Assembly (NCBI RefSeq): GCF_003991155.1
Contig: NZ_CP031293.1
Reading direction: 5' to 3' (one strand)
Source: Escherichia coli
GTDB lineage: Bacteria > Pseudomonadota > Gammaproteobacteria > Enterobacterales > Enterobacteriaceae
Length of the DNA stretch: 64,000 nucleotides
Part shown: piece by piece, positions 1 to 62,781 of the stretch
Numbering within the stretch: the first letter of the stretch is position 1
Layout of the letters: each line of letters begins with the position of its first letter
The notes under the pieces: generated by a model
Databases searched by the model: none
What the model was told of the DNA's origin: nothing
Seen by the model: the letters and a program-made list of their open reading frames with translations, nothing else
Made by a program: the position numbers and the translations under genes

Positions 1-32
1 GCTTCCTGAACTTTCTTCTGACAGATCAATGG

Positions 33-1007
33 ATGCCAGTAATGATTAGCGGCGTGTTGTACGCCCTGTTAGCAGGGTTGATGTGGGGGCTTATTTTTGT
101 CGGGCCGTTGATCGTACCGGAATACCCGGCGATGTTGCAGTCGATGGGGCGTTATCTGGCGTTAGGGTTAATTGCGCTGCCCATTGCCTGGCTGGGACGC
201 GTGCGTCTGCGTCAGTTGGCGCGTCGCGACTGGCTTACCGCCTTGATGCTCACCATGATGGGCAACCTTATCTATTACTTCTGCCTTGCAAGTGCCATTC
301 AACGTACTGGCGCGCCTGTTTCCACGATGATTATCGGCACCCTGCCGGTGGTGATTCCCGTTTTTGCCAATCTGCTTTATAGCCAGCGCGACGGCAAACT
401 CGCATGGGGAAAACTCGCCCCGGCACTGGTTTGTATTGGCATCGGCCTGGCGTGTGTGAATATTGCTGAGTTAAACCACGGACTCCCCGATTTTGACTTG
501 GCACGTTATACCTCTGGCATCGTGCTGGCGTTAGTTTCCGTGGTCTGCTGGGCATGGTATGCCCTGCGCAACGCCCGCTGGCTGCGGGAAAATCCCGACA
601 AACATCCGATGATGTGGGCGACGGCGCAGGCGCTGGTCACGCTGCCGGTTTCTCTCATCGGCTATCTCGTCGCCTGTTACTGGCTGAATATGCAAACGCC
701 GGACTTCTCCTTACCCTTTGGCCCCCGTCCGCTGGTGTTTATTAGTCTGATGGTTGCGATAGCCGTGCTTTGCTCATGGGTTGGCGCACTCTGCTGGAAC
801 GTCGCCAGCCAGCGATTACCGACAGTGATTCTCGGGCCGCTGATTGTTTTCGAAACGCTGGCAGGTTTGCTGTACACCTTTTTACTCCGCCAGCAAATGC
901 CGCCGCTAATGACGCTGAGCGGTATCGCGCTGTTAGTGATTGGCGTGGTCATCGCGGTCAGAGCAAAACCAGAAAAACCTTTAACTGAATCTGTCTCAGA
1001 AAGTTGA
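33..1007 (+). CDS. ytfF: Inner membrane protein, DMT/EamA-like transporter family (YtfF)
   Basis: 324-aa ORF, highly hydrophobic multi-TM sequence; position immediately upstream of ytfE as in E. coli K-12 (from memory). True start may be a few codons inside the ORF. Confidence 0.8.
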   Translation: MPVMISGVLYALLAGLMWGLIFVGPLIVPEYPAMLQSMGRYLALGLIALPIAWLGRVRLRQLARRDWLTALMLTMMGNLIYYFCLASAIQRTGAPVSTMIIGTLPVVIPVFANLLYSQRDGKLAWGKLAPALVCIGIGLACVNIAELNHGLPDFDLARYTSGIVLALVSVVCWAWYALRNARWLRENPDKHPMMWATAQALVTLPVSLIGYLVACYWLNMQTPDFSLPFGPRPLVFISLMVAIAVLCSWVGALCWNVASQRLPTVILGPLIVFETLAGLLYTFLLRQQMPPLMTLSGIALLVIGVVIAVRAKPEKPLTESVSES

Positions 1008-1065
1008 CACGCTGGCAGTGAGTTAAATAAGCCTCTGCTACGTAAGGGTTATAGCTTTTGCCTTA

Positions 1066-1088
1066 AAGATGCATTTAAAATGCATCTT
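1066..1088. promoter_or_regulatory. NsrR operator (11-1-11 inverted repeat aagatgcatttaaaatgcatctt) in ytfE promoter
   Basis: Near-perfect palindrome seen in sequence about 27 bp upstream of the ytfE ATG; matches the known NsrR box of the ytfE promoter (established knowledge). Confidence 0.6.
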
Positions 1089-1114
1089 ATCTTATTAAGA
1101 ATGAGGTATCAGCT

Positions 1115-1777
1115 ATGGCTTATCGCGACCAACCTTTAGGTGAACTGGCGCTCTCTATTCCTCGCGCTTCGGCTCTGTTTCGTAAATATGATATGGATTA
1201 CTGCTGTGGCGGTAAGCAGACGCTGGCGCGCGCGGCGGCACGTAAAGAACTGGATGTTGAGGTCATTGAAGCCGAACTGGCAAAGCTTGCTGAACAACCG
1301 ATTGAGAAAGACTGGCGTAGCGCCCCGCTGGCGGAAATCATCGACCACATTATTGTGCGCTATCACGATCGCCATCGCGAGCAGCTGCCGGAGCTGATTC
1401 TGCAAGCGACTAAAGTCGAGCGCGTTCACGCCGACAAACCGAGCGTGCCAAAAGGGCTGACAAAATACCTGACTATGCTGCATGAAGAGCTTTCCAGCCA
1501 CATGATGAAAGAAGAGCAGATCCTCTTCCCGATGATCAAACAAGGCATGGGCAGCCAGGCAATGGGGCCAATCAGCGTAATGGAAAGCGAGCACGATGAA
1601 GCGGGTGAACTGCTGGAAGTAATCAAACACACTACCAATAACGTCACACCGCCGCCGGAAGCCTGCACCACCTGGAAAGCGATGTATAACGGCATTAATG
1701 AACTGATTGATGACCTGATGGAGCACATCAGCCTGGAAAATAATGTGCTGTTCCCGCGCGCACTGGCGGGTGAGTGA
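1115..1777 (+). CDS. ytfE: Iron-sulfur cluster repair di-iron protein YtfE (RIC)
   Basis: 220-aa ORF beginning [33 protein letters not shown], recognised as YtfE/RIC; hemerythrin-like His/Glu motifs. Confidence 0.92.
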
Positions 1778-1784
1778 TCTAAAA

Positions 1785-1809
1785 GCTGGATGGCATTGCG
1801 CCATCCAGC
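1785..1809. terminator. Hairpin (gctggatggc / gccatccagc) between convergent ytfE and cycA
   Basis: 10-bp perfect inverted repeat with 5-nt loop in the 44-bp gap between two convergent stop codons; no clear T-tract. Confidence 0.35.
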
Positions 1810-1821
1810 ATGATAATGCGG

Positions 1822-3234
1822 TTATTTCCGCAGTTCAGCAGCCCGCTTCTTACCAATAAACAACCAGCCCAACCCCAGCGCGATAAACCACAGCGGGGTA
1901 ACCAGCAGCGCCTGGCGAGTGTCATCTTCCAGTGTCAGCAACACGACCACGAACACAAAGAACGCCATACATACCCAGCACATCAGCTTGCCGAGCGGCA
2001 TCTTATAGATCGACTTCTCATGCAGATGAGGACGCTGTTTGCGGTACACCAGGTACGAGCAAAGGATAATCGTCCAGACGAACATAAACAGAATCGCGGA
2101 AACGGTCGTGATCATCGTGAACGCGCCAATCACGCTGGGATTCACATACAGCATCACCACGCCGCCGAGCAGACAGATGCAGGAGAAGGTCAGCCCTTTC
2201 GCGGGTACTGCGCGCTTAGAGAGTTTAGCGAACGCTTTCGGTGCCACACCTTCCTGGGCCAGACCAAACAGCATACGGCTGGTAGAGAAGACACCGCTGT
2301 TAGCGGAAGAAGCGGCAGAGGTCAGCACCACAAAGTTAATCACGCTGGCGGCAGCAGGCAGACCCACCAACACGAACAGTTCAACAAACGGGCTTTTCTC
2401 CGGGACTACCGAACTCCACGGCGTCACGGACATAATCACAATCAGCGCGAAGACGTAGAACATAATGATACGGATCGGAATGGAGTTAATCGCGCGTGGC
2501 AGTGATTTCTCTGGATCTTTGGTTTCCGCAGCGGTGGTACCTACCAGCTCAATCCCTACGAAAGCGAAAACCGCTATCTGGAATCCGGCAAAGAAGCCAC
2601 TTAAACCTTTCGGGAACCAGCCGCCATCATTCCACAAATGCGCGAATGACGCTTCCACACCGGTCGGTGACTGAAAGTGCATCGCCACCATGACCAGGCC
2701 GACGACTATCAGCGACACAATGGCGACGATTTTGATCATCGCAAACCAGAACTCCATCTCACCGAACATTTTCACGGTGGCGAGGTTAAGCGTCAGCAGC
2801 AGCACTATCACCGCCAGCGAGGCGACCCAGTCGGAGAGATCGGGGAACCAGAACTGAGCATAAGCCGTGATCGCCACCACGTCTGCCATACCGGTTACAA
2901 CCCAGCAGAACCAGTAAGTCCAGCCGGTGAAATATCCTGCCCACGGCCCGAGTAAATCGGAAGCGAAGTCACTAAAAGATTTGTATTCCAGATTCGAAAG
3001 CAGCAATTCCCCCATTGCCCGCATCACGAAAAAGAGCATAAAACCGATGATCATATAAACGAAAATGATCGACGGCCCGGCAAGGCTAATCGTTTTGCCG
3101 GACCCCATAAACAACCCTGTACCAATGGCACCGCCAATGGCAATAAGCTGAATATGTCGGTTTGTGAGATTGCGCCGTAGCGACTGTTCAGCCGGAGCCT
3201 GATCATCGGCAACGACTTTTACCTGATCTACCAT
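1822..3234 (-). CDS. cycA: D-serine/D-alanine/glycine:H+ symporter CycA (APC family)
   Basis: 470-aa ORF, APC-family amino acid permease sequence; synteny with ytfE and fklB. Confidence 0.92.
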   Translation of the reverse strand: MVDQVKVVADDQAPAEQSLRRNLTNRHIQLIAIGGAIGTGLFMGSGKTISLAGPSIIFVYMIIGFMLFFVMRAMGELLLSNLEYKSFSDFASDLLGPWAGYFTGWTYWFCWVVTGMADVVAITAYAQFWFPDLSDWVASLAVIVLLLTLNLATVKMFGEMEFWFAMIKIVAIVSLIVVGLVMVAMHFQSPTGVEASFAHLWNDGGWFPKGLSGFFAGFQIAVFAFVGIELVGTTAAETKDPEKSLPRAINSIPIRIIMFYVFALIVIMSVTPWSSVVPEKSPFVELFVLVGLPAAASVINFVVLTSAASSANSGVFSTSRMLFGLAQEGVAPKAFAKLSKRAVPAKGLTFSCICLLGGVVMLYVNPSVIGAFTMITTVSAILFMFVWTIILCSYLVYRKQRPHLHEKSIYKMPLGKLMCWVCMAFFVFVVVLLTLEDDTRQALLVTPLWFIALGLGWLFIGKKRAAELRK

Positions 3235-3542
3235 GTTTTTTTCTTCCTGTACCTGTCTGTGTTGTTCAGGCTCTACGGCCTTTAGTCAGTCTATGATACG
3301 ACGAATCTGTATCGGGACTCATCGATATTAGGTAACAATACGCGGGATGAATACTAAGATTTAGATCTAATGTTAATTTTATGTTTAAAGTAAGTGTCAT
3401 ATCACGGTGATAACGCGAAACAGCTCACAAAAATACACGCTTACAGGGTCTTTGCAACATAAAATAGCGCCGTTTGGCAAACTGAAGGAGTTATTGCTGA
3501 ATGCCTGCTCCCCTCTGGTTCGAAGGGAACAGAATGCGCTGC

Positions 3543-4163
3543 TTAGAGGATTTCCAGCAGTTCGACTTCAAACACCAGGGTGCTGAACGGAGGGATGGAC
3601 GCGCCAGCGCCGCGCTCGCCATATGCCAGTTCCTGCGGGATAGTCAGTTCCCATTTAGAACCTACCGGCATCAGAGTCAGTGCTTCAATCCAGCCAGGGA
3701 TCACACCATTAACCGGGAATTCAGCTGGCTCGCCGCGAGCAACGGAGCTGTCAAACACGGTGCCGTCGATCAGTTTTCCGGTGTAATGAACACGAACGCG
3801 GTCGGTACGTGCCGGAATTGCGCCTTCGCCCTGGTTGATCACGCGGAATTGCAGGCCAGATTCGGTGCTATTTACACCTTCTTTTTTGGCGTTTTCTTCC
3901 AGGTATTTCACACCTTCAGCAGCCATCGCCTGGAAACGCTGACGACGAACGGCATCGGCGCGTTCGTGGATTTCACGCAGCGCGCGGTGCACCACATCAA
4001 CCGGAACAGCCGGATGTTTGCCTTCCAGCGCATCGGCAATGCCTGCAACCAGTGCTTCTGGCAGCAGCCCTTCCAGGCCAGATTCACTCAGTTGTTGCCC
4101 TACCTGCAAACCAATGCCGTAGCTTGCTTGCGCTTCGATGGTGTCAAAAGTTGGGGTGGTCAT
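3543..4163 (-). CDS. fklB: FKBP-type peptidyl-prolyl cis-trans isomerase FklB
   Basis: ORF track gives 259 aa; conserved protein starts at internal [20 protein letters not shown] (206 aa) with FKBP domain at the C-terminus; start chosen accordingly. Confidence 0.9.
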
Positions 4164-4380
4164 CGTATTTCCTTTCTTAGGGTATAAAGTAGCGGGCAGC
4201 ATATCAGCCACACTTCTTTGGGTAAAACTTTGTCGCGGGAATGATGACAAATCCCGGGGAAAAAGAAACAATAGCAATATCCCGTATGAATATAATAAAG
4301 GCGGGTTTACCACGGACATCATAGCGTTAGCTTATTCATAGGCTATGATTGAGGAACAAGACGCGGAGCAGGAGGAAACC

Positions 4381-5019
4381 ATGCCCGGGCGCTTTGAACT
4401 AAAACCAACCCTGGAGAAAGTCTGGCACGCGCCGGACAATTTTCGCTTCATGGACCCGCTGCCGCCGATGCATCGTCGGGGGATCATTATTGCCGCCATT
4501 GTATTGGTAGTCGGATTTCTGCTTCCATCTGATGATACGCCCAACGCGCCAGTGGTGACGCGTGAAGCGCAGTTAGATATTCAGTCGCAATCACAACCAC
4601 CGACAGAAGAACAGCTGCGGGCGCAATTAGTCACGCCACAAAATGATCCTGATCAGGTGGCTCCGGTCGCTCCAGAACCAATACAGGAAGGCCAGCCAGA
4701 AGAGCAGCCGCAAACCACCCATACGCAACCATTCCAGCCAGATAGCGGAATTGATAATCAATGGCGCTCCTATCGTGTCGAACCCGGTAAAACGATGGCG
4801 CAGCTGTTCCGCGACCACGGACTGCCCGCTACCGATGTCTATGCCATGGCGCAGGTAGAAGGCGCGGGTAAGCCGCTGAGTAATTTGCAAAACGGGCAGA
4901 TGGTGAAAATCCGCCAGAACGCCAGCGGCGTGGTGACGGGCTTAACCATTGATACGGGGAATAATCAACAGGTCCTGTTTACCCGCCAGCCGGATGGCAG
5001 TTTTATTCGTGCGCGGTAG
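4381..5019 (+). CDS. ytfB: Cell division protein YtfB (OapA/LysM-like C-terminal domain)
   Basis: ORF 4345..5019; start set at [23 protein letters not shown] to give 212 aa; Pro/Gln-rich linker then C-terminal OapA-like domain. Confidence 0.8.
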
Positions 5020-5650
5020 ATGAAGGGTCAACCAAAAGCCAGCTAAGGATTGTCTCTTTGATGACCTTACGTCTGGCTTCCAGTGCCTGGGGTGAAACCA
5101 TACTGATGTGATAAACCAGGCCAAGCGTATGCTGGTTGATCAAATAATATCCCCCAAGCGCAGCAATATTAATATTCACCTGCAATGGGTCGATATCTGG
5201 CTTAAAAATATTGTGTTTCTTCCCTTCATCCAATAAGGATTCCATTAACTGCAAGTGCGCATGGTTAATTTCTAAAAGACGCTGTGACTTTGCATAATGC
5301 ACACCCTTACTTTGATTTTCACTATGCACAATTTTTAAAAACCAGGGATTAGAAATATAATAATCCCATGTAAAATCGATTATTTTCTCAATGGCTTTCT
5401 GTGGCGGAAGATCTGAGAAATCAAGGGCCTTTTCTTTTTGTCGAATATCGTTCCAGGTATATTCCAGTACTTCGATAAATAAATTTTCTTTATTACCAAA
5501 GTGGTGATAAACCGTCTGTTTACTGCACCCTGCTGCCTTGACAATATTATCGACTCTGGCCCCTTCGTAACCATATTCGGCAAATTCATTAACCGCGCAT
5601 AACAGCAGCTTTTCTTTCAGGCTCTGTACGTTGCTGGTATCAAGATACAT
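5003..5650 (-). CDS. TetR/AcrR-family transcriptional regulator, divergent from the catabolic operon
   Basis: N-terminal HTH signature ([28 protein letters not shown]) typical of TetR; start set at [11 protein letters not shown] (215 aa); AT-rich coding sequence; 3' end overlaps ytfB by 17 bp (convergent). Possibly the intact counterpart of the K-12 ytfA fragment (from memory, unverified). Confidence 0.8.
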
Positions 5651-5862
5651 AACGCTTCCCCACGACCTCTTCGTGGTGACTATCATAACCTGATTTGATT
5701 TCAGCTTCAGAAAAAAGGGCAAAAACTTGTACTTTCATCAGGTTATCAAATGTCCTGTGATCGCCATCGCATATCAACCAACTAGATGGTTGATCTTTTT
5801 ATCATCCAGTCGCAAGCTAATCATCACCAAGGAAACAAAATTCAAAAAAAGAGAGCTATTGT

Positions 5863-25553: not shown

Positions 25554-27179
25554 TTACAAACACACTCCTCCCGTCGCCCGCAGCAATAAATCATTCTGGA
25601 TCTGCTCTGACAACCGTACGCCGCCGCGCGTATCTAACATCACCTGACACCACGCCTGCGCCATTGGCGGAGAGGCATATTTCAACATTTGCGCACCACA
25701 GCCCAGCAGGAATAGCTGATGAGTAATCTCTCGCCCCAGTTCTTCAGCAGGCTTACGCAGCTGCTGCTGTAAACGACGAACCGCGCGATCAAAATAGCGA
25801 TCCTGTCCTTTCACTTCCACAAATGCTTCCGACAATAAGTCGTATACGCCCGCTTGCTTATTGAGCACGCGCAGCACATCCAGGCACATAATGTTGCCGG
25901 AACCTTCCCAGATACTATTTACCGGCATCTCCCGGTAAAGCCGCGGCAGCTCGCTCTCCTCGCAATAACCAATGCCGCCCAGCACCTCCATCGCTTCGGC
26001 CATAAACGGCATACCTCGTTTGCAGATCACAAATTTCGCCGCAGGCGTAAATAAACGCGCCCACAGGGCTTCTTTGGCATCAGCACGCCGGTCCCACGCT
26101 CGCGCAAGACGAAACAGCAACGCCGTTTGACCTTCAAGCTGAAGCGCCATGCGACTTAAGACATGACGCATAAGGGGCTGTTGGATCAATGGATTACCAA
26201 AAACATGGCGTTGATGTGCATGATAAATCGCCAGCGAAAATGCACGGCGCATCATGGCATGGCTACCCAGGGCGCAATCAAAACGCGTCATCCCTCCCAT
26301 TTTCAGGATCAGACGAGTTCCTTCCCCTTCCTGCCCTAACAACCAGCCAATGGCATCCTGAAACTCCACTTCGCAACTGGCGTTAGAGCGATTACCCAGC
26401 TTATCTTTCAGCCGCTCGAGGCGAATCGCGTTGCGTTGCCCGTCAGGCAAAAAGCGCGGCACAAAAAAGCAGGACAAACCGCCCGTAGTCTGCGCCAGCA
26501 CCAGATGCGCATCGCTTTGCGGCACCGAGAAAAACCATTTATGCCCCACCAGCCGATAAGAGCCATCTTCCAGGCGCTCTGCGCGGGTGGTGTTGCTCAT
26601 GACATCGGAACCGCCCTGCTTTTCCGTCATTCCCATGCCAATCAACAAACCGCGTTTTTGCCCACCTGGCAATAAGTGAGAATCGTAGCGATCGCTCAAC
26701 AGCGGCGTGGTCCAGTCCTGAAACGGCGCGGGTAACATCTGTAACAGCAATGGCGTGGCGGCAAAGGTCATGGTTATCGGACATAACGACCCAGCCTCAA
26801 CCTGCGCATGTAACATAAAACGCGCCGCGCGCGCCACAAATGCGCCGGAGCGAGCGTCTTCTTCCCAGGCAAGATTGTGCACCCGATTGGTACATAGCGC
26901 CTGCATCAGCAGGTGCCAGGCGGGGTGAAAACGCACATCGTCCAGACGGCGTCCTTGCGCATCGTAGCGCAATAATTCAGGCGGATTCACATTCGCCAGC
27001 CGCCCCAGTTCAAGGGATTCAGCCGTCCCTAACTGCTGACCAATACTGGCTAGAAAATCGCTATCCCAGCCAGCACCTTCACGCGTTACCGCTTCGCAGA
27101 GCGCGCCATCAGACAGGTATAAATTGCTGTTATTTAATGGTATAGGTTGATTAAAAACGGTGTGAGTTTGCCAGTGCAC
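25554..27179 (-). CDS. aidB: Adaptive-response protein AidB (acyl-CoA dehydrogenase family)
   Basis: ORF track 547 aa; conserved N-terminus begins at the GTG codon of V-HWQTHTVFNQPIPLNNSNLY (541 aa). Confidence 0.9.
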   Translation of the reverse strand: MHWQTHTVFNQPIPLNNSNLYLSDGALCEAVTREGAGWDSDFLASIGQQLGTAESLELGRLANVNPPELLRYDAQGRRLDDVRFHPAWHLLMQALCTNRVHNLAWEEDARSGAFVARAARFMLHAQVEAGSLCPITMTFAATPLLLQMLPAPFQDWTTPLLSDRYDSHLLPGGQKRGLLIGMGMTEKQGGSDVMSNTTRAERLEDGSYRLVGHKWFFSVPQSDAHLVLAQTTGGLSCFFVPRFLPDGQRNAIRLERLKDKLGNRSNASCEVEFQDAIGWLLGQEGEGTRLILKMGGMTRFDCALGSHAMMRRAFSLAIYHAHQRHVFGNPLIQQPLMRHVLSRMALQLEGQTALLFRLARAWDRRADAKEALWARLFTPAAKFVICKRGMPFMAEAMEVLGGIGYCEESELPRLYREMPVNSIWEGSGNIMCLDVLRVLNKQAGVYDLLSEAFVEVKGQDRYFDRAVRRLQQQLRKPAEELGREITHQLFLLGCGAQMLKYASPPMAQAWCQVMLDTRGGVRLSEQIQNDLLLRATGGVCL

Positions 27180-27262
27180 TGTGTCTCCCTCCATCAATGG
27201 CAGTCACCATTAGTATGGTCACTGCCATGGATTCATGACAGAAAGAGATTGCTAAAACATTC

Positions 27263-29076: not shown

Positions 29077-29475
29077 TTACCATGTCATACAAGCTGCGTT
29101 AAAAATACCACCAGCCAGTGCGGCGGTTCCCATAAACATTCCTGCTGCGGTATTGTGATTAATAATTTTTTCGCTTAATGCGGGCATATAAAGTCTGACG
29201 CCAGCAAAAACGAGTAACTGAATCACCAGTGCAATCCCGCCCCAGGCGAAATAATCCGGAATACTCACCGCATTGATTGCCGCACTGGATAAGGGGATCA
29301 CGTAACCCAACAATGTACCGCTGAATGCCAGTGACGCCGCGGTATTATTGTTTTTGATTAATTGCCATTCGTTGTGCGGTGTAATTTTGGAGTAGATAAA
29401 CAGAAAAATAATCACCATAGCCACGCCAATAAAAAAATAGGCGCTAAAGGCAAGAAGTGAATCCAGTATATGCAT
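29077..29475 (-). CDS. yjfL: DUF350-family inner membrane protein YjfL
   Basis: ORF 159 aa; start set at MHILDSLLAFSAYFFIGVAMVIIF (132 aa), 4 predicted TM segments. Confidence 0.75.
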   Translation of the reverse strand: MHILDSLLAFSAYFFIGVAMVIIFLFIYSKITPHNEWQLIKNNNTAASLAFSGTLLGYVIPLSSAAINAVSIPDYFAWGGIALVIQLLVFAGVRLYMPALSEKIINHNTAAGMFMGTAALAGGIFNAACMTW

Positions 29476-34748: not shown

Positions 34749-35174
34749 TCACTCCACCAGCAATAATTTATAAAGCGGTTGATTCTCTTCAACCAAATCG
34801 GCAAGCGTGTAGTTATCCAGTTCCGTAAGAAAACTTTGCACGGCCTTAGAAAGCGCCTGTTTCAACCGACAGGCAGGTGTAATGTGGCAAAACTCACTGC
34901 TGCAATTCACCAGCGATAAGGGCTCCAGCTCGCGCACCACATCACCAATACGTATCGCACTCGCCGGTTTACCCAGACGAATGCCGCCATTTTTTCCACG
35001 AACAGCAGTCACGTAGCCGGCACGACTAAGTTGATTGATTATTTTGACCATATGATTACGGGAGACGCCGTAGACGTCAGTCACTTCAGAAATACTGGTC
35101 ATCCGCCCTTCAGGCAATGACGCCATGTAGATCAGCGCACGTAATCCGTAATCAGTGAAACTCGTTAACTGCAC
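34749..35174 (-). CDS. nsrR: Nitric-oxide-sensing transcriptional repressor NsrR (Rrf2 family)
   Basis: 141-aa [53 protein letters not shown]. Confidence 0.92.
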
Positions 35175-39411: not shown

Positions 39412-40692
39412 TTAGATCAAGTAATCGATCAACGCCGGTTCTTGTTTGCAGAGGCGACGCCAGTCAACGATCGGCATACGAACTTGCAGACTTACGCTGC
39501 CGTCCTCCTCCATCCACTCTTTTTCTATTGCCTGAAGCTGATAAAAACGACTTCTCAGACGCCCTTCCTGCGGTGGCAGACGCAATGTATGCTGCGCCAC
39601 CTCGCCGGAAAGCCGCTCCGTCAAAGCCTGAAAAAGCTGTGGTATCCCCGCTCCGGTCTGTGCGGAAAGCCAGACACGGATCGGTTTGTTCTCTTCGTCC
39701 CGATCAATACGCGGTTCGAAATCTTCCAGCATATCGATCTTGTTCATCACCAGCAGGGTTGGGATCTCGTGAGCGTCGATCTCTTCAAGAACCGTATTCA
39801 CCGCTTCGATGTTTTCTTGTACACGCACATCCGCCGCGTCAATGACGTGCAGCAGTAATGTGGCTTGCCGCGTCTCTTGTAACGTGGCTTTAAATGCCGC
39901 CACCAGATCGTGCGGCAGGTGGCGAATAAACCCTACGGTATCTGCAAGTACGGTTTCACCGACATCCGCGACGTCAATACGCCGCAACGTCGGGTCGAGG
40001 GTGGCAAACAACTGGTCTGCCGCGTAGACCCGCGCTTCGGTGATGCGATTGAAAAGGGTAGATTTACCGGCGTTGGTATATCCCACCAGCGAAACAGTAG
40101 GAACGTCGGCTTTGATACGCGATTGCCGCCCCTGCTCACGCTGCTTTTCAACTCTTTCCAGGCGCGACTGTATCTGCACGATGCGATTACGCAACAAACG
40201 ACGGTCGGTTTCGAGCTGGGTTTCACCCGGACCACGCAAACCTATCCCGCCTTTCTGTCTTTCAAGGTGGGTCCAGCCACGCACCAGGCGCGTAGCCAGA
40301 TGGCGCAACTGCGCCAGCTCAACCTGCAACTTACCCTCATGGGTACGCGCACGTTGGGCGAAAATATCTAAAATAAGGCCGGTGCGGTCGATAACACGAC
40401 ACTCGCACAAACGCTCCAGGTTACGCTCTTGCGCCGGGCTCAGGGCATGGTCAAAAAGAACGACCGAAGCACCCGTCGCTTTGACAGCTTCCGCAATTTC
40501 AACTGCTTTACCTTCACCTACAAAATACTTTGGGTGCGGCGCTTTACGGCTACCGGTAATCACCTGCAATGCTTCGACACCGGCGGAAGAGACCAGAGAT
40601 TCAAACTCCTGGAGGTCTTCCATATCTTTGTCTTGCGTAAAATAGATGTGTACCAGTACCGCCTGCTCACCAGCATCATAACGGTCAAACAA
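39412..40692 (-). CDS. hflX: GTPase HflX
   Basis: 426-aa ORF with P-loop ([12 protein letters not shown]) and Obg/HflX-type N-terminal domain. Confidence 0.93.
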
Positions 40693-45312: not shown

Positions 45313-47291
<1,979 letters not shown>

Positions 47292-47293
<2 letters not shown>

Positions 47294-48431
47294 GTCAGAG
47301 CCCCTCGATCTCAATCAGTTAGCGCAAAAAATTAAACAGTGGGGGCTGGAACTGGGCTTTCAGCAGGTAGGTATTACCGATACCGATCTCAGCGCGTCCG
47401 AGCCCAAACTGCAAGCATGGCTGGACAAACAATACCACGGCGAAATGGACTGGATGGCGCGTCACGGTATGCTGCGTGCTCGTCCTCACGAATTATTGCC
47501 CGGTACGCTGCGCGTGATCAGCGTGCGGATGAATTACCTTCCTGCTAACGCCGCATTTGCCAGCACGCTGAAAAATCCCAAACTCGGCTATGTTAGCCGT
47601 TATGCGCTGGGCCGTGACTATCACAAGCTTCTGCGCAACCGACTCAAAAAGCTGGGCGAGATGATTCAGCAACATTGTGTTTCGCTGAATTTTAGACCGT
47701 TTGTCGATTCTGCGCCTATTCTCGAGCGCCCGTTAGCTGAAAAAGCAGGTCTTGGCTGGACAGGTAAGCACTCACTTATCCTCAATCGCGAGGCCGGTTC
47801 GTTCTTTTTTTTAGGCGAATTGCTGGTCGATATTCCGCTGCCCGTGGATCAACCAGTCGAGGAAGGATGCGGTAAATGCGTGGCCTGTATGACGATTTGC
47901 CCGACCGGTGCCATCGTCGAGCCATATACCGTCGATGCTCGCCGCTGTATCTCTTATCTCACCATCGAACTGGAAGGGGCGATCCCGGAAGAGTTGCGAC
48001 CGTTAATGGGAAACCGTATTTACGGTTGCGATGACTGCCAGCTTATCTGCCCGTGGAATCGCTATTCGCAACTCACTACAGAAGACGATTTCAGCCCGCG
48101 TAAGCCGCTACACGCACCGGAACTCATTGAGTTATTCGCCTGGAGTGAAGAGAAGTTTTTAAAAGTCACGGAAGGTTCGGCGATTCGCCGTATAGGTCAC
48201 CTGCGTTGGCTGCGTAATATTGCCGTAGCCTTAGGCAATGCGCCCTGGGATGAAACGATTCTGGCGGCGCTGGAAAGTCGTAAAGGTGAGCACCCACTTC
48301 TTGATGAGCACATAGCGTGGGCGATTGCGCAGCAAATCGAGAGGCGAAATGCGTGCGTGGTCGAAGTGCAATTACCGAAAAAACAGCGTCTGGTTCGGGT
48401 GATTGAAAAAGGGTTACCGCGTGACGCCTGA
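47292..48431 (+). CDS. queG: Epoxyqueuosine reductase QueG (4Fe-4S, cobalamin-dependent)
   Basis: ORF 415 aa; conserved start at MSEPLDLNQLAQKIKQWGLELGF (379 aa); two CxxCxxCxxxCP ferredoxin motifs. Confidence 0.88.
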
Positions 48432-49755: not shown

Positions 49756-49849
49756 GCTATTTTCCACCCATTCACAGTGACTATATTGATCCACAATTGC
49801 GTGTATCATAGATGTTTTGCCCATCAGGGGCGACCAGGAGTCTGTACGA

Positions 49850-50902
49850 TTGAGTAAAAATAAACTCTCCAAAGGCCAGCAGCGCCGCGTGAACGCCAAT
49901 CACCAGCGTCGTCTTAAAACGTCTAAGGAGAAGCCCGACTACGACGACAATCTGTTTGGCGAGCCTGATGAAGGTATCGTCATCAGCCGCTTTGGTATGC
50001 ACGCTGATGTGGAATCCGCAGATGGCGACGTTCACCGCTGCAATATTCGCCGTACCATCCGTTCGCTGGTGACCGGCGACCGCGTAGTCTGGCGTCCGGG
50101 TAAACCGGCGGCGGAAGGAGTAAATGTCAAAGGGATCGTGGAAGCGGTGCATGAGCGCACCTCGGTGTTGACGCGTCCGGATTTCTACGACGGCGTGAAA
50201 CCTATTGCCGCCAACATCGACCAGATTGTCATTGTCTCCGCCATTTTGCCGGAGCTGTCGCTCAATATTATCGACCGTTACCTGGTGGCCTGCGAAACCT
50301 TGCAGATTGAGCCGATTATTGTGCTCAACAAGATAGACCTGCTGGACGACGAAGGCATGGAGTTCGTCAACGAGCAGATGGATATCTACCGCAATATCGG
50401 TTATCGCGTATTGATGGTTTCCAGTCATACTCAGGATGGGCTGAAACCGCTGGAAGAGGCGTTGACCGGGCGCATCAGCATTTTTGCCGGGCAGTCTGGC
50501 GTCGGTAAATCCAGCCTGCTGAACGCGCTGCTGGGGCTGCAAAAAGAGATCCTGACCAACGATGTCTCTGACAACTCGGGTCTCGGTCAGCACACCACGA
50601 CCGCCGCTCGGCTGTATCACTTCCCGCACGGCGGTGATGTGATTGACTCCCCAGGAGTGCGTGAGTTCGGCCTCTGGCACCTGGAGCCGGAACAAATCAC
50701 TCAGGGCTTTGTCGAATTCCATGACTACTTAGGTCTGTGTAAATATCGCGATTGCAAACACGATACCGATCCGGGCTGCGCTATCCGGGAAGCGGTTGAG
50801 GAAGGGAAAATCGCGGAAACCCGTTTCGAAAACTATCACCGTATTCTGGAAAGCATGGCGCAGGTAAAAACGCGTAAAAACTTTTCTGATACGGATGACT
50901 GA
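49850..50902 (+). CDS. rsgA: Small ribosomal subunit biogenesis GTPase RsgA (YjeQ)
   Basis: ORF track starts upstream; conserved N-terminus (M)[20 protein letters not shown] begins at a TTG codon (350 aa); circularly permuted GTPase motifs and C-terminal Zn-finger cysteines. Confidence 0.88.
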
Positions 50903-50997: not shown

Positions 50998-51966
50998 TTG
51001 TTAAATTCATTTAAACTTTCGCTACAGTACATTCTGCCGAAACTATGGCTTACTCGCCTGGCGGGTTGGGGCGCAAGCAAGCGGGCAGGATGGCTGACAA
51101 AACTGGTTATCGATCTGTTCGTTAAATACTACAAGGTCGACATGAAAGAGGCGCAAAAGCCGGATACCGCCAGCTACCGCACCTTTAACGAATTCTTTGT
51201 CCGTCCGCTGCGTGACGAAGTACGCCCAATCGATACCGATCCGAATGTACTGGTTATGCCTGCCGATGGCGTTATCAGCCAGTTGGGTAAAATCGAAGAA
51301 GATAAAATCCTGCAAGCCAAAGGCCACAACTACAGCCTCGAAGCCCTGCTGGCAGGCAACTATCTGATGGCGGACCTGTTCCGCAACGGTACGTTTGTGA
51401 CCACTTACCTCTCCCCGCGTGACTACCACCGCGTACACATGCCGTGCAACGGTATTCTGCGTGAGATGATCTACGTGCCGGGCGATCTCTTTTCCGTTAA
51501 CCATCTCACCGCTCAGAACGTGCCGAATCTGTTTGCCCGTAACGAACGCGTGATCTGCCTGTTCGATACCGAATTTGGCCCAATGGCGCAGATTCTGGTC
51601 GGGGCGACGATTGTAGGCAGCATTGAGACGGTCTGGGCGGGCACCATTACGCCGCCGCGCGAAGGTATCATCAAGCGCTGGACCTGGCCTGCCGGGGAAA
51701 ACGACGGTTCTGTGGCACTGCTGAAAGGCCAGGAAATGGGTCGCTTTAAACTCGGTTCCACCGTTATCAACCTGTTTGCACCGGGTAAAGTGAATCTGGT
51801 TGAGCAACTGGAAAGCCTGTCTGTCACGAAAATTGGCCAGCCGCTGGCAGTATCTACCGAAACCTTTGTTACGCCAGACGCTGAACCCGCCCCGCTTCCT
51901 GCTGAAGAGATCGAAGCAGAACACGACGCCAGCCCATTGGTTGACGACAAAAAAGACCAGGTCTAA
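50998..51966 (+). CDS. psd: Phosphatidylserine decarboxylase proenzyme
   Basis: 322-aa [39 protein letters not shown] with LGST self-cleavage motif near the C-terminus. Confidence 0.93.
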
Positions 51967-51987: not shown

Positions 51988-54900
51988 GTGCGCCTGATTA
52001 TCACTTTTCTGATGGCCTGGTGCCTCAGTTGGGGGGCGTACGCCGCGACGGCCCCCGATAGCAAACAAATCTCACAAGAACTGGAGCAGGCAAAAGCGGC
52101 GAAACCCGCGCAACCGGAAGTCGTAGAGGCGCTCCAGTCTGCCTTAAATGCGCTTGAGGAACGAAAAGGTTCCCTTGAGCGCATCAAGCAATATCAAGAA
52201 GTCATTGATAATTATCCGAAACTCTCCGCTACTCTGCGCGCGCAATTAAACAACATGCGTGACGAGCCGCGCAGCGTGTCACCGGGAATGTCTACCGACG
52301 CGCTGAATCAGGAAATTCTCCAGGTCAGCAGCCAGTTGCTGGATAAAAGCCGTCAGGCCCAGCAAGAGCAGGAACGCGCCCGCGAGATTGCCGATTCGCT
52401 GAATCAACTGCCGCAACAGCAAACCGATGCCCGCCGTCAGTTAAATGAAATCGAGCGCCGCCTGGGGACGCTTACCGGCAATTCCCCGCTCAATCAGGCA
52501 CAAAATTTCGCGTTGCAGTCTGACTCCGCACGCCTGAAAGCGCTCGTCGATGAACTGGAACTGGCGCAGCTGTCCGCCAATAACCGCCAGGAATTAGCGC
52601 GTTTACGCTCAGAGCTGGCGGAAAAAGAGAGCCAGCAACTGGATGCATATTTGCAGGCCTTACGTAATCAGTTGAACAGCCAACGTCAGCTTGAGGCGGA
52701 GCGGGCGCTGGAAAGTACCGAATTACTGGCAGAAAACAGTGCCGATTTGCCGAAAGATATCGTCGCGCAATTCAAAATTAACCGCGAACTATCGGCAGCG
52801 CTGAATCAACAGGCGCAGCGGATGGATCTCGTTGCCTCGCAACAGCGTCAGGCTGCCAGCCAGACGTTACAGGTCCGGCAGGCGTTGAATACGCTGCGTG
52901 AACAGTCGCAATGGCTGGGCTCGTCCAACCTGCTCGGCGAAGCGTTGCGGGCGCAGGTGGCACGGCTGCCGGAAATGCCAAAACCACAACAACTTGATAC
53001 CGAAATGGCGCAGTTGCGTGTGCAACGGTTACGTTATGAGGATCTGCTTAATAAACAGCCGCAGCTAAGGCAAATTCATCAGGCCGACGGTCAGCCGCTG
53101 ACCGCCGAGCAAAACCGTATTCTGGAAGCACAGCTACGCACTCAGCGTGAGTTGCTGAACTCATTGTTGCAGGGTGGAGACACGCTACTGCTGGAACTGA
53201 CCAAGCTGAAAGTCTCCAACGGGCAACTGGAGGATGCGCTGAAAGAGGTGAATGAAGCGACGCACCGCTATCTGTTCTGGACCTCTGACGTGCGCCCAAT
53301 GACCATCGCCTGGCCGCTGGAAATCGCCCAGGATCTGCGTCGTCTCATTTCGCTGGACACCTTCAGTCAGTTGGGCAAAGCCAGTGTGATGATGCTGACC
53401 AGTAAAGAGACAATTTTACCGCTGTTTGGCGCGTTGATTCTGGTCGGTTGCAGTATTTACTCACGCCGCTATTTCACCCGTTTTCTTGAACGTTCGGCGG
53501 CGAAAGTCGGCAAAGTGACTCAGGATCACTTCTGGCTGACGTTACGCACTCTTTTCTGGTCGATTCTCGTCGCGTCACCGCTACCGGTGCTGTGGATGAC
53601 GCTGGGTTACGGCTTGCGCGAGGCGTGGCCTTATCCGCTGGCGGTAGCGATTGGTGATGGCGTAACAGCCACCGTACCGCTGCTATGGGTAGTGATGATT
53701 TGCGCTACCTTTGCCCGCCCGAACGGCTTATTTATCGCTCATTTTGGCTGGCCGCGCGAACGGGTTTCCCGTGGGATGCGCTACTACCTGATGAGCATTG
53801 GGCTTATCGTGCCGCTGATTATGGCGCTGATGATGTTCGATAATCTCGACGACCGCGAGTTTTCCGGTTCGCTGGGACGGCTTTGCTTTATCCTCATTTG
53901 CGGTGCGCTGGCGGTGGTCACTCTCAGTCTGAAAAAGGCCGGGATCCCGCTGTATCTCAACAAAGAAGGCAGCGGTGACAACATTACCAACCATATGCTG
54001 TGGAACATGATGATTGGCGCACCGCTGGTTGCCATTCTGGCGTCGGCGGTGGGTTATCTGGCAACGGCGCAGGCACTGTTAGCGAGGCTTGAAACCTCGG
54101 TTGCCATCTGGTTCCTGCTACTAGTGGTTTATCACGTTATCCGCCGCTGGATGCTGATCCAGCGCCGCAGGCTGGCGTTTGACCGGGCGAAGCATCGCCG
54201 GGCAGAGATGTTAGCGCAACGTGCGCGTGGCGAAGAGGAAGCGCATCATCACAGTAGCCCGGAAGGGGCAATTGAAGTAGATGAAAGCGAAGTCGATCTC
54301 GATGCCATCAGTGCGCAATCCTTGCGGCTGGTGCGCTCAATTTTGATGTTGATCGCCCTGCTTTCGGTCATTGTGCTGTGGTCAGAAATCCATTCCGCTT
54401 TCGGCTTCCTCGAAAATATTTCGCTGTGGGATGTCACCTCCACGGTACAGGGCGTAGAAAGTCTGGAGCCGATTACCCTCGGTGCGGTGCTGATTGCCAT
54501 TCTGGTGTTTATCATCACCACGCAGCTGGTGCGCAACCTGCCCGCGCTGCTGGAACTGGCGATTTTGCAGCACCTGGATTTAACGCCGGGTACGGGCTAC
54601 GCCATCACCACCATCACCAAATATCTGCTGATGCTGATTGGCGGGCTGGTCGGCTTCTCAATGATTGGTATTGAGTGGTCGAAATTGCAGTGGCTGGTCG
54701 CCGCGCTCGGTGTTGGTCTCGGTTTTGGTTTGCAGGAAATTTTCGCCAACTTTATCTCTGGCCTGATCATCCTGTTCGAAAAACCGATTCGCATTGGCGA
54801 TACGGTAACGATCCGCGATCTTACTGGTAGCGTGACGAAAATTAACACCCGCGCCACCACCATCAGCGACTGGGACCGTAAAGAGATAATCGTGCCGAAC

Positions 54901-56510: not shown

Positions 56511-56939
56511 TCAAGATGCGGGTGTGAGCACCTGAAAGTGATCGTTAATTCGGGATGTCAGAGAGTCCGCTATATCCGGCAGCGTCTGGTTAAAAAAGAC
56601 AGAAAAACGGGATACATTATATTCATGAATGGTTTTATATTCGCAGATTAGCGGTGACGTCAGTGCTTTCAGATTCAGCGCCCCCATGATATTCAGGCGT
56701 GTGCGGCAGCCTGTTGTTTTTACTGCTTTTTTCTGGCCTTTACGTATCCAGCCATAGCTGATTTTAGTGGCCTGAGTCGGATGGACTCCATCAATAAAAA
56801 GAACCGGTTCATCACCCACAGTTATTTTCAGTTCCTCATAATATTCAATGAATTGCCTTTGTTTCTCTTCACTGAATTTATGGGGGACGCCTGACGGTTT
56901 TTTGTAGGTGAAACCATTACGATGCAGCCACTTATTCAT
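56511..56939 (-). pseudogene. IS630-family transposase fragment (C-terminal part)
   Basis: 142-aa ORF MNKWLHRNGFTYKKPSGVPHKFSEEKQRQFIEYYEEL, separated by a frameshift or gap from the N-terminal fragment. Confidence 0.6.
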
Positions 56940-57031
56940 CCCCGGAATGCTGAAAATGATGTTCCATGTCCGGGTGATAAACGCAATAACATCGCGGGTA
57001 TGGTGAAATAAATTATCGGATAACTGGCTGA

Positions 57032-57328
57032 TTAAAAGGCCGTTTGTTCAGCACTGAGTTTGCTGTCTGAGCCGCCGTTTTCGGGCTTCAGTTTTCCTTT
57101 ATTCAGGAATTCGCTGATATGGTGATCAATCGTTGTCTGATGCAAGCGTAAAGCCTGAGCAATCATGGCAGAACTCCAGCCTTCGGAAACCAGAAGAATG
57201 GCTTTAATACGATCTCTGACTCGCCCGTCACGACTGGAATCATGAAGGCGTTCAAGTTCAGCTTTTTGTTGCTCAGTAATGAATATTTTCATGTTGGACA
57301 GCATGATCTTCTGTTGCTGAAAAATCAA
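57032..57328 (-). pseudogene. IS630-family transposase fragment (N-terminal HTH part)
   Basis: 98-aa ORF with HTH region; no contiguous reading frame with the downstream fragment. Confidence 0.6.
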
Positions 57329-57439
57329 GCATCTTCAATGATCACGGGTATATAAGGTGAATATTTATTGTTTTTAATATAAAAATCGCTTGCCCAACTT
57401 ACAGAGTGACTGCAAGCTGGATAATATACTCGTCATACT

Positions 57440-57852
57440 TCAGAACGGTAAGCAAACGGGGTGAACGCTGACCTCTGCGGCTAAAGCGCGCCAGGACGGC
57501 GGTATATAAGGTTTTGTAGCAGGATGGTCTCATCCGGCTACAAACAAAACTGATAGCGCAGAAAAAACTGCCACAGCCAGTAGCCGAAAATCACAAGCGC
57601 GGTGGCATACATAAACCAGCCGCGTTTTTTTCGCCACAAAGCGAACCAGAGAAAAGGGAAAAAGAGCGGTAACGTCATTATCACACCGACATCGCGGGTA
57701 TCATCATTTTCCAGATACTCCAGCACATGGCAGATATTTTTAACCCCACCTTCATCAATCATCCACTCTTTGTCCAGCGTGGAAGTGATGACTATCTAGG
57801 GGATCGCTACAACAAACCAGATGCAGCATAAGACAAACGTGCGCGCACTCAT
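57440..57852. repeat. Segmental duplication copy B (fossil of mscM 3' end + hairpin + yjeN)
   Basis: See copy A; copy B carries about 60 bp homologous to the last codons of mscM although no mscM gene is adjacent. Boundaries approximate. Confidence 0.6.
57538..57852 (-). pseudogene. yjeN: YjeN/YjeO-family small membrane protein with in-frame TAG at codon 19 (possible pseudogene or 74-aa N-truncated product)
   Basis: Reading from ATG at 57852 gives MSARTFVLCCIWFVVAIP-stop(TAG, 57796..57798)-IVITSTLDKEWMIDEGG...; the stop aligns with a Trp in the paralog at 55341..55658; ORF track reports only the 74-aa downstream frame 57538..57762. Confidence 0.5.
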
Positions 57853-60843: not shown

Positions 60844-60972
60844 CAGACTTATCCATCAGACTATACTGTTGTACCTATAAAGGAGCAGTGGAATAGCGTT
60901 CGCAGACCGTAACTTTCAGGCACTTACCCTGAAGTACGGGGCTGTGGGATAAAAACAATCTGGAGGAATGTC

Positions 60973-62773
60973 GTGCAAACCTTTCAAGCCGATCTTGCCA
61001 TTGTAGGCGCCGGTGGCGCGGGATTACGTGCTGCAATTGCTGCCGCGCAGGCAAATCCAAATGCAAAAATCGCACTAATCTCAAAAGTATACCCGATGCG
61101 TAGCCATACCGTTGCTGCAGAAGGGGGCTCCGCCGCTGTCGCGCAGGATCATGACAGCTTCGAATATCACTTTCACGATACAGTAGCGGGTGGCGACTGG
61201 TTGTGTGAGCAGGATGTCGTGGATTATTTCGTCCACCACTGCCCAACCGAAATGACCCAACTGGAACTGTGGGGATGCCCATGGAGCCGTCGCCCGGATG
61301 GTAGCGTCAACGTACGTCGCTTCGGCGGCATGAAAATCGAGCGTACCTGGTTCGCCGCCGATAAGACCGGCTTCCATATGCTGCACACGCTGTTCCAGAC
61401 CTCTCTGCAATTCCCGCAGATCCAGCGTTTTGACGAACATTTCGTGCTGGATATTCTGGTTGATGATGGTCATGTTCGCGGCCTGGTAGCAATGAACATG
61501 ATGGAAGGCACGCTGGTGCAGATCCGTGCTAACGCGGTCGTTATGGCTACCGGCGGTGCGGGTCGCGTTTATCGTTACAACACCAACGGCGGCATCGTTA
61601 CCGGTGACGGTATGGGTATGGCGCTAAGCCACGGCGTTCCGCTGCGTGACATGGAATTCGTTCAGTATCACCCAACCGGTCTGCCAGGTTCCGGTATCCT
61701 GATGACAGAAGGCTGCCGCGGTGAAGGTGGTATTCTGGTCAACAAAAATGGCTACCGTTATCTGCAAGATTACGGCATGGGCCCGGAAACTCCGCTGGGC
61801 GAGCCGAAAAACAAATATATGGAACTGGGTCCACGCGACAAAGTTTCTCAGGCCTTCTGGCACGAATGGCGTAAAGGCAACACTATCTCCACGCCGCGTG
61901 GCGATGTGGTTTATCTCGACCTGCGTCACCTCGGCGAGAAAAAACTGCATGAACGTCTGCCGTTCATCTGCGAACTGGCGAAAGCGTACGTTGGCGTCGA
62001 TCCGGTTAAAGAACCGATTCCGGTACGTCCGACCGCGCACTACACCATGGGCGGTATCGAAACCGATCAGAACTGTGAAACCCGCATTAAAGGTCTGTTC
62101 GCCGTGGGTGAATGTTCCTCTGTTGGTCTGCACGGTGCGAACCGTCTGGGCTCCAACTCGCTGGCGGAACTGGTGGTCTTCGGTCGTCTGGCCGGTGAGC
62201 AAGCTATGGAACGCGCATCTACTGCCGGTAATGGCAACGATGCAGCAATCAATGCTCAGGTTGCTGGCGTTGAACAGCGCCTGAAAGATCTGGTTAACCA
62301 GGATGGCGGCGAAAACTGGGCTAAGATCCGCGACGAAATGGGCATGGCCATGGAAGAAGGCTGCGGTATCTACCGTACGCCAGAACTGATGCAGAAAACC
62401 ATCGACAAGCTGGCAGAATTGCAGGAACGCTTCAAGCGCGTGCGCATCACCGACACTTCCAGCGTGTTCAACACCGACCTGCTCTACACCATTGAACTGG
62501 GTCACGGTCTGAACGTTGCTGAATGTATGGCGCACTCCGCAATGGCACGTAAAGAGTCCCGCGGCGCGCACCAGCGTCTGGACGAAGGTTGCACCGAGCG
62601 TGACGACGTCAACTTCCTCAAACACACCCTCGCCTTCCGCGATGCTGATGGCACGACTCGCCTGGAGTACAGCGACGTGAAGATTACTACGCTGCCGCCA
62701 GCTAAACGCGTTTACGGTGGCGAAGCGGATGCAGCCGATAAGGCGGAAGCAGCCAATAAGAAGGAGAAGGCGA

Positions 62774-62781
<8 letters not shown>
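60973..62781 (+). CDS. frdA: Fumarate reductase flavoprotein subunit
   Basis: 602-aa ORF starting at GTG ([29 protein letters not shown]); covalent-FAD His region SHTVAAEGG. Confidence 0.96.

Follow-up and report, generated by a model that had tools for sequence, protein, structure and literature searches.

Non-ATG start codons of rsgA, aidB and frdA in an Escherichia coli chromosomal segment: ordinary, already annotated initiation sites and their conservation in Enterobacteriaceae

[quoted passage not shown] Initiation at GUG or UUG is less efficient than at AUG, a deficit that is offset by a strong SD. Both codons belong to the canonical class and lie outside the class discriminated by IF3; the AUU start of infC, which is discriminated by IF3, serves in autoregulation of this gene. 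In the preprint of Hecht et al., the infC (IF3) start is described as non-canonical AUU, and start usage across E. coli is given as 83% AUG, 14% GUG and 3% UUG. By tetracycline-inhibited ribosome profiling, UUG and GUG starts were re-annotated, e.g. for ftsH (Nakahigashi 2016; PMC4909307). In a genome-wide comparison, a tendency towards AUG was reported and purifying selection was suggested on a subset of GUG starts (Belinky et al. 2017).

The window analysed here, a stretch of 64,000 nucleotides of the E. coli chromosome reaching from cycA to frdC, holds sites of the same kind as canonical E. coli GUG and UUG initiation, with NTG behind a strong SD at 5–9 nt. A preliminary description of this DNA had placed the rsgA start at TTG 49850, the aidB start at GTG 27177..27179 and the frdA start at GTG 60973, and all three were confirmed by the sequence and by RefSeq CDS boundaries. 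The RefSeq/PGAP entries of rsgA (yjeQ), aidB and frdA, together with the sequences of PDB 2YKR/7BOI, 3DJL and 1KF6, have the same CDS boundaries, N-termini and TTG/GTG/GTG starts, an agreement that is no independent proof of the starts because both sources follow annotation. Compared with the PDB sequences, RsgA, AidB and FrdA of the window carry only few internal substitutions and none at the starts. PGAP called the three starts correctly in every E. coli record examined.

The RefSeq (PGAP) annotation of NZ_AP021933.1 was transferable to the window because beyond about 6 kb the two sequences are collinear and almost the same; over window positions 29300–64000, a single mismatch was counted in 34,701 nt. 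Positions 1–5800 are out of register with this record (about 75% mismatches per kb), which points to an indel or a replaced segment within or before this stretch. A 1.1-kb probe around the rsgA start found a match in 5,425 of the 5,426 complete E. coli genomes, and in many of them the identity was 100%. For comparison between species, each species was represented by one genome, and the scan yielded 80 Enterobacteriaceae loci besides the E. coli window. SD strength was scored for each candidate start as the duplex energy with the 16S 3′ end (kcal/mol); each of the annotated rsgA, aidB and frdA starts was the best SD match among the candidates scored. Scanning the three upstream regions for sigma-70 promoters and terminators did not help to place transcription starts, the sole match being one orn-side promoter-like site.

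Of the 64 CDS annotated in the window, 56 begin with ATG, 4 with GTG (aidB, nsrR, mscM, frdA), 3 with TTG (hflX, rsgA, psd) and 1 with ATA, i.e. seven non-ATG starts when the ATA of a gene fragment is set apart. The three non-ATG starts listed in the preliminary description were thus correct, and the list was incomplete, giving three of seven and missing psd, hflX, nsrR and mscM. With the E. coli-wide usage as expectation, at least three TTG starts in 63 genes have a probability of 0.29 and at least seven non-ATG starts one of 0.93; the number of non-ATG starts is within the genome-wide expectation, without excess over chance.

The four further starts were all taken from RefSeq. The psd start is TTG (50998..51000, plus strand), and the orthologous codon is TTG in 77 of 80 species and GTG in the other 3, the only change seen. 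For mscM, GTG (51988..51990, plus strand) was found in 80/80 species, and in-frame stops occur as close as codon −3 among the species compared. The hflX start is TTG (40690..40692, minus strand; TTG in all 34 species whose flank reached the gene), and that of nsrR is GTG (35172..35174, minus strand; SD duplex −6.3 kcal/mol). The adjacent genes rsgA and psd both start with TTG behind strong SDs. The divergent genes nnr (minus) and queG (plus) have annotated start codons that share 2 nt, read from opposite strands of the palindrome CATG at 47291–47294. Between mscM and yjeM lies an inserted block (56511–57795), consisting of a frameshifted IS630-family transposase pseudogene (about 56511–57304) and an adjoining YjeO-family gene fragment (57538–57795, minus strand), for which the PGAP start is ATA and the mechanically called ORF starts at ATG 57762.

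The rsgA coding sequence (49850..50902, plus strand; 350 aa) begins with TTG at 49850–49852, followed by AGT AAA AAT AAA CTC TCC AAA GGC CAG CAG, which gives the protein start MSKNKL. An AGGAG SD (49836..49840, plus strand) precedes the TTG by 9 nt with a duplex energy of −6.9 kcal/mol, and ACCAGGAG was present in 80 of 81 sequences. The orthologous start codon was TTG in 80/80 other Enterobacteriaceae species. The NCBIfam equivalog NF008931 (RsgA/YjeQ small-subunit biogenesis GTPase) was matched at 626 bits against a cut-off of 360, with RsgA residues 1–349 aligned to positions 1–346 of the 347-position profile, and the E. coli RsgA sequences of PDB 2YKR and 7BOI align over residues 1–350 and begin with MSKNKL. 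Six more distant relatives (47–74% identity) carry ATG or GTG at the same position of an M-x-K-x-K-L N-terminus, with an in-frame stop 2–10 codons upstream and no alternative start; this N-terminus recurs in RsgA relatives down to about 40% identity. Because distant relatives start with GTG or ATG at this very place, the position of the rsgA start is ancient, and the identity of the TTG is an Enterobacteriaceae trait. An ATG-initiated ORF of 313 aa lies antisense to almost all of rsgA (49781–50722, minus strand); it had no match among NCBIfam families and is most probably a shadow ORF.

A longest-ORF rule would start rsgA 11 codons further upstream, at the in-frame TTG 49817..49819 (plus strand), and yield 361 aa. 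That codon is invariant in 81/81 sequences, and no stop separates it from the annotated start. However, it has no SD of its own (duplex +0.1 kcal/mol vs −6.9 for TTG 49850), and the stretch between the two codons varies at all frame positions: in the 11 in-frame upstream codons, variable columns are distributed 5/3/5 over the three codon positions, codon −8 occurs as ten different triplets, residue changes at codons −9, −8, −3 and −2 are radical, and in Trabulsiella guamensis codon −2 is an in-frame TAA. Codons 2–10 of rsgA, in contrast, have variable columns in a 0/1/7 distribution, almost all at third positions, and at Gly9 all four GGN codons are used while the residues are invariant. Since the variation by frame position differs in this way upstream and in codons 2–10, the sequence changes from non-coding to coding behaviour at TTG 49850. 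The NCBIfam profile, too, starts at annotated residue 1, and an initiation at TTG 49817 is considered very improbable.

The invariance of TTG 49817 can be accounted for otherwise, because the codon lies on the 5′ side of a stem that is itself invariant. A hairpin UUGCCC-N5-GGGCGA is predicted at 49817..49833 (plus strand), just 5′ of the rsgA SD; its 6-bp stem was shared by 80 of 81 sequences, the exception being a C-to-U change that retains a G–U pair, and its 5-nt loop was hypervariable. As the stem does not vary, the hairpin is without covariation, and the fold z-score was −0.43, so the predicted structure is to be regarded as unproven. No Rfam family was detected in the orn–rsgA intergenic region. 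Upstream of the hairpin, a nearly invariant block GTGTATCATAG at about 49801–49811 was noticed, which could be a candidate −10 region.

In 29 of 81 sequences, Salmonella included, the hairpin loop contains an in-frame ATG that precedes the rsgA TTG by 8 codons and might be co-used in the species carrying it. PDB 2RCN, the Salmonella YjeQ/RsgA (orthologous to RsgA of the window and 95% identical), is longer by 8 residues at the N-terminus, MGDQEPVR, after which the TTG position is occupied by Leu in place of the initiator Met. It starts from this non-conserved upstream ATG, whereas the E. coli RsgA entries begin with MSKNKL. The extension is probably a start mis-annotation that was carried into the construct, and the eight residues would then be non-native.

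The aidB coding sequence (25554..27179, minus strand; 541 aa) begins with GTG at 27177..27179 (minus strand), where the reverse complement of 27179–27177 reads GTG and is followed by CAC TGG CAA ACT CAC ACC GTT TTT, i.e. (M)HWQTHTVF. The SD GGAGGGAG (27185..27192, minus strand) lies 5 nt before the GTG, has a duplex energy of −9.8 kcal/mol and is invariant in 5/5 aligned species. NF008594 (AidB/isovaleryl-CoA dehydrogenase, equivalog) was matched at 1177 bits against a cut-off of 545, AidB residues 1–540 covering profile positions 1–540 of 540, and the sequence of PDB 3DJL corresponds to residues 1–541. From the SD onward, the region aligned without gaps with Salmonella enterica, Citrobacter sedlakii, C. 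amalonaticus and C. portucalensis; further upstream, indels separate the genera. Salmonella and the three Citrobacter species read GGAGGGAGACAC(A/C) ATG vs GGAGGGAGACACA GTG in E. coli. This alignment shows that the position of the aidB start is conserved, the E. coli codon being set apart by a single A/G transition. The start context was sampled in five E. coli strains; K-12 J53 and three further strains have the same call and an identical GTG context.

For aidB, the longest-ORF rule gives an ORF 6 codons longer, from the in-frame TTG 27197–27195 (547 aa), or alternatively one from ATG 27194–27192 (546 aa), both within 27192..27197 (minus strand). These codons are in frame without a stop before the annotated GTG, and ATG is the preferred type of start codon. 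Neither has an SD of its own (−2.8 kcal/mol for ATG or TTG vs −9.8 for GTG), the ATG overlaps the SD of the GTG and is AAG in Salmonella and all three Citrobacter species, and the family profile starts at annotated residue 1; an initiation of aidB at these codons is likewise considered very improbable. Because an in-frame ATG is present 5 codons upstream in E. coli, a minor longer AidB proteoform or minor dual start use is possible. An M(H/S/Q/P/L)WQTHT N-terminus was found in all but one of 120 AidB homologues. The exception, a legacy E. coli record of 557 aa, has a 16-residue extension and starts with MAVTILMVMPLMEGDTV-HWQ; its upstream ATG is out of frame in the window, from which we infer that this strain seems to have a 1-nt indel in the inverted repeat upstream of aidB.

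This inverted repeat (27193–27232, minus strand) has arms of 18 nt with 89% complementarity and a 4-nt gap, and spans the in-frame TTG and ATG. It flanks a conserved GACCATACT. In Salmonella, a perfect 10-nt version with different inner bases was found. Further upstream of aidB, AATGTTTTAGCAA (27249–27261, minus strand) resembles AATnnnnnnGCAA, which we take to be the Ada-box consensus.

The frdA coding sequence (60973..62781, plus strand; 602 aa) begins with GTG at 60973–60975, followed by CAA ACC TTT CAA GCC GAT, i.e. (M)QTFQAD. Its SD GGAGG (60962..60966, plus strand) lies 5–6 nt before the GTG, with a duplex energy of −9.3 kcal/mol, and GGAGGAA was present upstream of frdA in all 67 sequences. 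The orthologous start codon was GTG in 66/66 other species. In-frame stops upstream of the GTG occur as close as codon −8, and in 33 of 67 sequences, E. coli included, this GTG is the first start-type codon (ATG, GTG or TTG) after the in-frame stop. NF006686 (fumarate reductase flavoprotein FrdA, equivalog) was matched at 1255 bits against a cut-off of 854, with FrdA residues 1–601 aligned to profile positions 1–597 of 598, and the sequence of PDB 1KF6 corresponds to residues 1–602. The GUG start of frdA is said to have stood already in the original frdA sequence paper of Cole from 1982. An out-of-frame ATG (60968–60970, plus strand) between the SD and the GTG (GGAGGAATGTCGTG) was seen in 63 of 67 sequences and opens a short ORF; it is probably unused, because it lies only 1 nt after GGAGG.

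The longest-ORF rule leaves the frdA start unchanged. What the preliminary description said of automated callers, namely that they lengthen or shorten these genes, therefore held for longest-ORF calls of rsgA and aidB and for some legacy or relative records, but not for frdA and not for PGAP.

Initiation could also be placed inside the annotated genes, at GTG codon 14 or ATG codon 50 of rsgA, ATG codon 42 of frdA and GTG codon 64 of aidB, leaving the N-terminal stretches untranslated. These are the next in-frame start-type codons, and ATG is the commonest start codon. Against this stand the almost exclusive third-position changes in rsgA codons 2–10, the recurrence of M-x-K-x-K-L among RsgA relatives and the coverage of residue 1 onward by the NCBIfam profiles; in frdA, the next in-frame start at codon 42 is downstream of the GAGGAG dinucleotide-binding motif (residues 12–17), so that its use would remove this N-terminal FAD-binding motif. 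The likelihood of such internal starts is accordingly put close to nil.

In all three genes, conserved coding sequence begins with the annotated codon, the SD spacing is suitable and the region upstream behaves as non-coding, as in canonical non-AUG initiation. At a probability of roughly 0.92, rsgA (UUG), aidB and frdA (both GUG) are ordinary, already annotated initiation sites with canonical alternative start codons. Each start codon would be used 5–9 nt 3′ of its strong SD and at the 5′ end of the conserved coding region, and through the initiator Met the predicted N-termini would be MSKNKL..., MHWQTH... and MQTFQA..., respectively. On the alignments, aidB toggles, with GUG in E. coli and AUG in Salmonella and Citrobacter; the UUG of rsgA and the GUG of frdA are invariant in identity. 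The alignment with orthologs, proposed in the preliminary description as a check, bore out its assignments: TTG was found in 80/80 species for rsgA, GTG in 66/66 for frdA, and for aidB an aligned ATG in Salmonella and Citrobacter.

The cases re-annotated in PMC4909307 resemble rsgA and aidB in that a start with a weak codon lies near an alternative in-frame start which a gene caller may prefer. Unlike those re-annotations, the starts of rsgA, aidB and frdA are already contained in current RefSeq records, and the three genes are not mentioned in PMC4909307 or its supplements. Likewise, no entry for rsgA, aidB, frdA, psd, hflX or nsrR was found among the listed TRAINSPOTTER N-terminomics rows or in the TetRP and Giess 2017 supplements, and a full-text literature search found no explicit statements on the start codons of rsgA, aidB or frdA.

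Across the Enterobacteriaceae, the first base of the start codon was unchanged in rsgA (80/80 species), frdA (66/66), mscM (80/80) and hflX (34/34). In the same alignments, invariant four-fold degenerate sites numbered 2 of 90 in rsgA, 4 of 225 in mscM and 1 of 33 in frdA; about 98% of such sites vary, and most show all four bases. That the identity of the start codon is invariant although four-fold sites are saturated points to purifying selection on start-codon identity. This family-wide invariance exceeds what the average genome-wide trend favouring switches to AUG would give, and these genes look like members of a subset under purifying selection such as that suggested by Belinky et al. 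(2017).

Such retention can be read as more than an expression level. The non-ATG starts might be selected regulatory devices, the UUG of rsgA with its hairpin tuning RsgA synthesis or feeding it back on ribosome-assembly or initiation status. Retention of weak starts suggests gene-specific selection, because the genome-wide trend runs towards AUG; the invariant first bases in rsgA, frdA, mscM and hflX, set against about 2% invariant four-fold sites, are in line with this, two genes for ribosome-associated GTPases (rsgA and hflX) both use UUG, and the hairpin stem and SD of rsgA are invariant. On the other side, distant RsgA genes use GTG or ATG, psd exchanges TTG for GTG in 3 species, and all start codons of these loci are conserved, the ATG of the ATG genes being retained across species as well. 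A simple expression set-point explains the data, the hairpin shows no covariation and has a fold z-score of −0.43, and the regulatory reading is considered unlikely.

The comparison with infC bears on the same question. Like infC, rsgA is translation-related and has a sub-optimal, conserved start codon; it differs in that its start is the canonical UUG, and the window starts of this kind are UUG or GUG only. In a reporter assay described in the literature, deletion of rsgA left start-codon discrimination unchanged. An infC-type autoregulation of rsgA was considered and given little weight, as the codon is not discriminated by IF3 and the deletion had no effect on start-codon recognition; on the same two grounds, a feedback device built on the rsgA UUG is unlikely. 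It is similarly doubtful that the weak UUG and GUG starts of rsgA (with its hairpin), hflX, psd, mscM and frdA are actively kept as regulatory or set-point devices coupling synthesis to the state of the translation-initiation machinery, as opposed to being neutral leftovers. The simplest reading of the alignments is presumably that the identity of the start codon is held, together with a strong SD, as an expression set-point.

The non-ATG starts of rsgA, aidB and frdA are thus already known and ordinary. The explicit curation that the preliminary description had called for is not needed: the starts are already in the reference annotation, the deposited structure sequences and the curated family models, and the window therefore requires no re-curation. 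What these loci do illustrate is a longest-ORF trap, which mis-calls rsgA and aidB; the same trap probably lies behind the Salmonella RsgA construct of 2RCN and the 557-aa AidB record. The only mildly novel angle is the family-wide freezing of weak start codons. With weak starts frozen throughout the family while silent sites are saturated, these genes are a neat, small-scale case of selection acting on the identity of the start codon.
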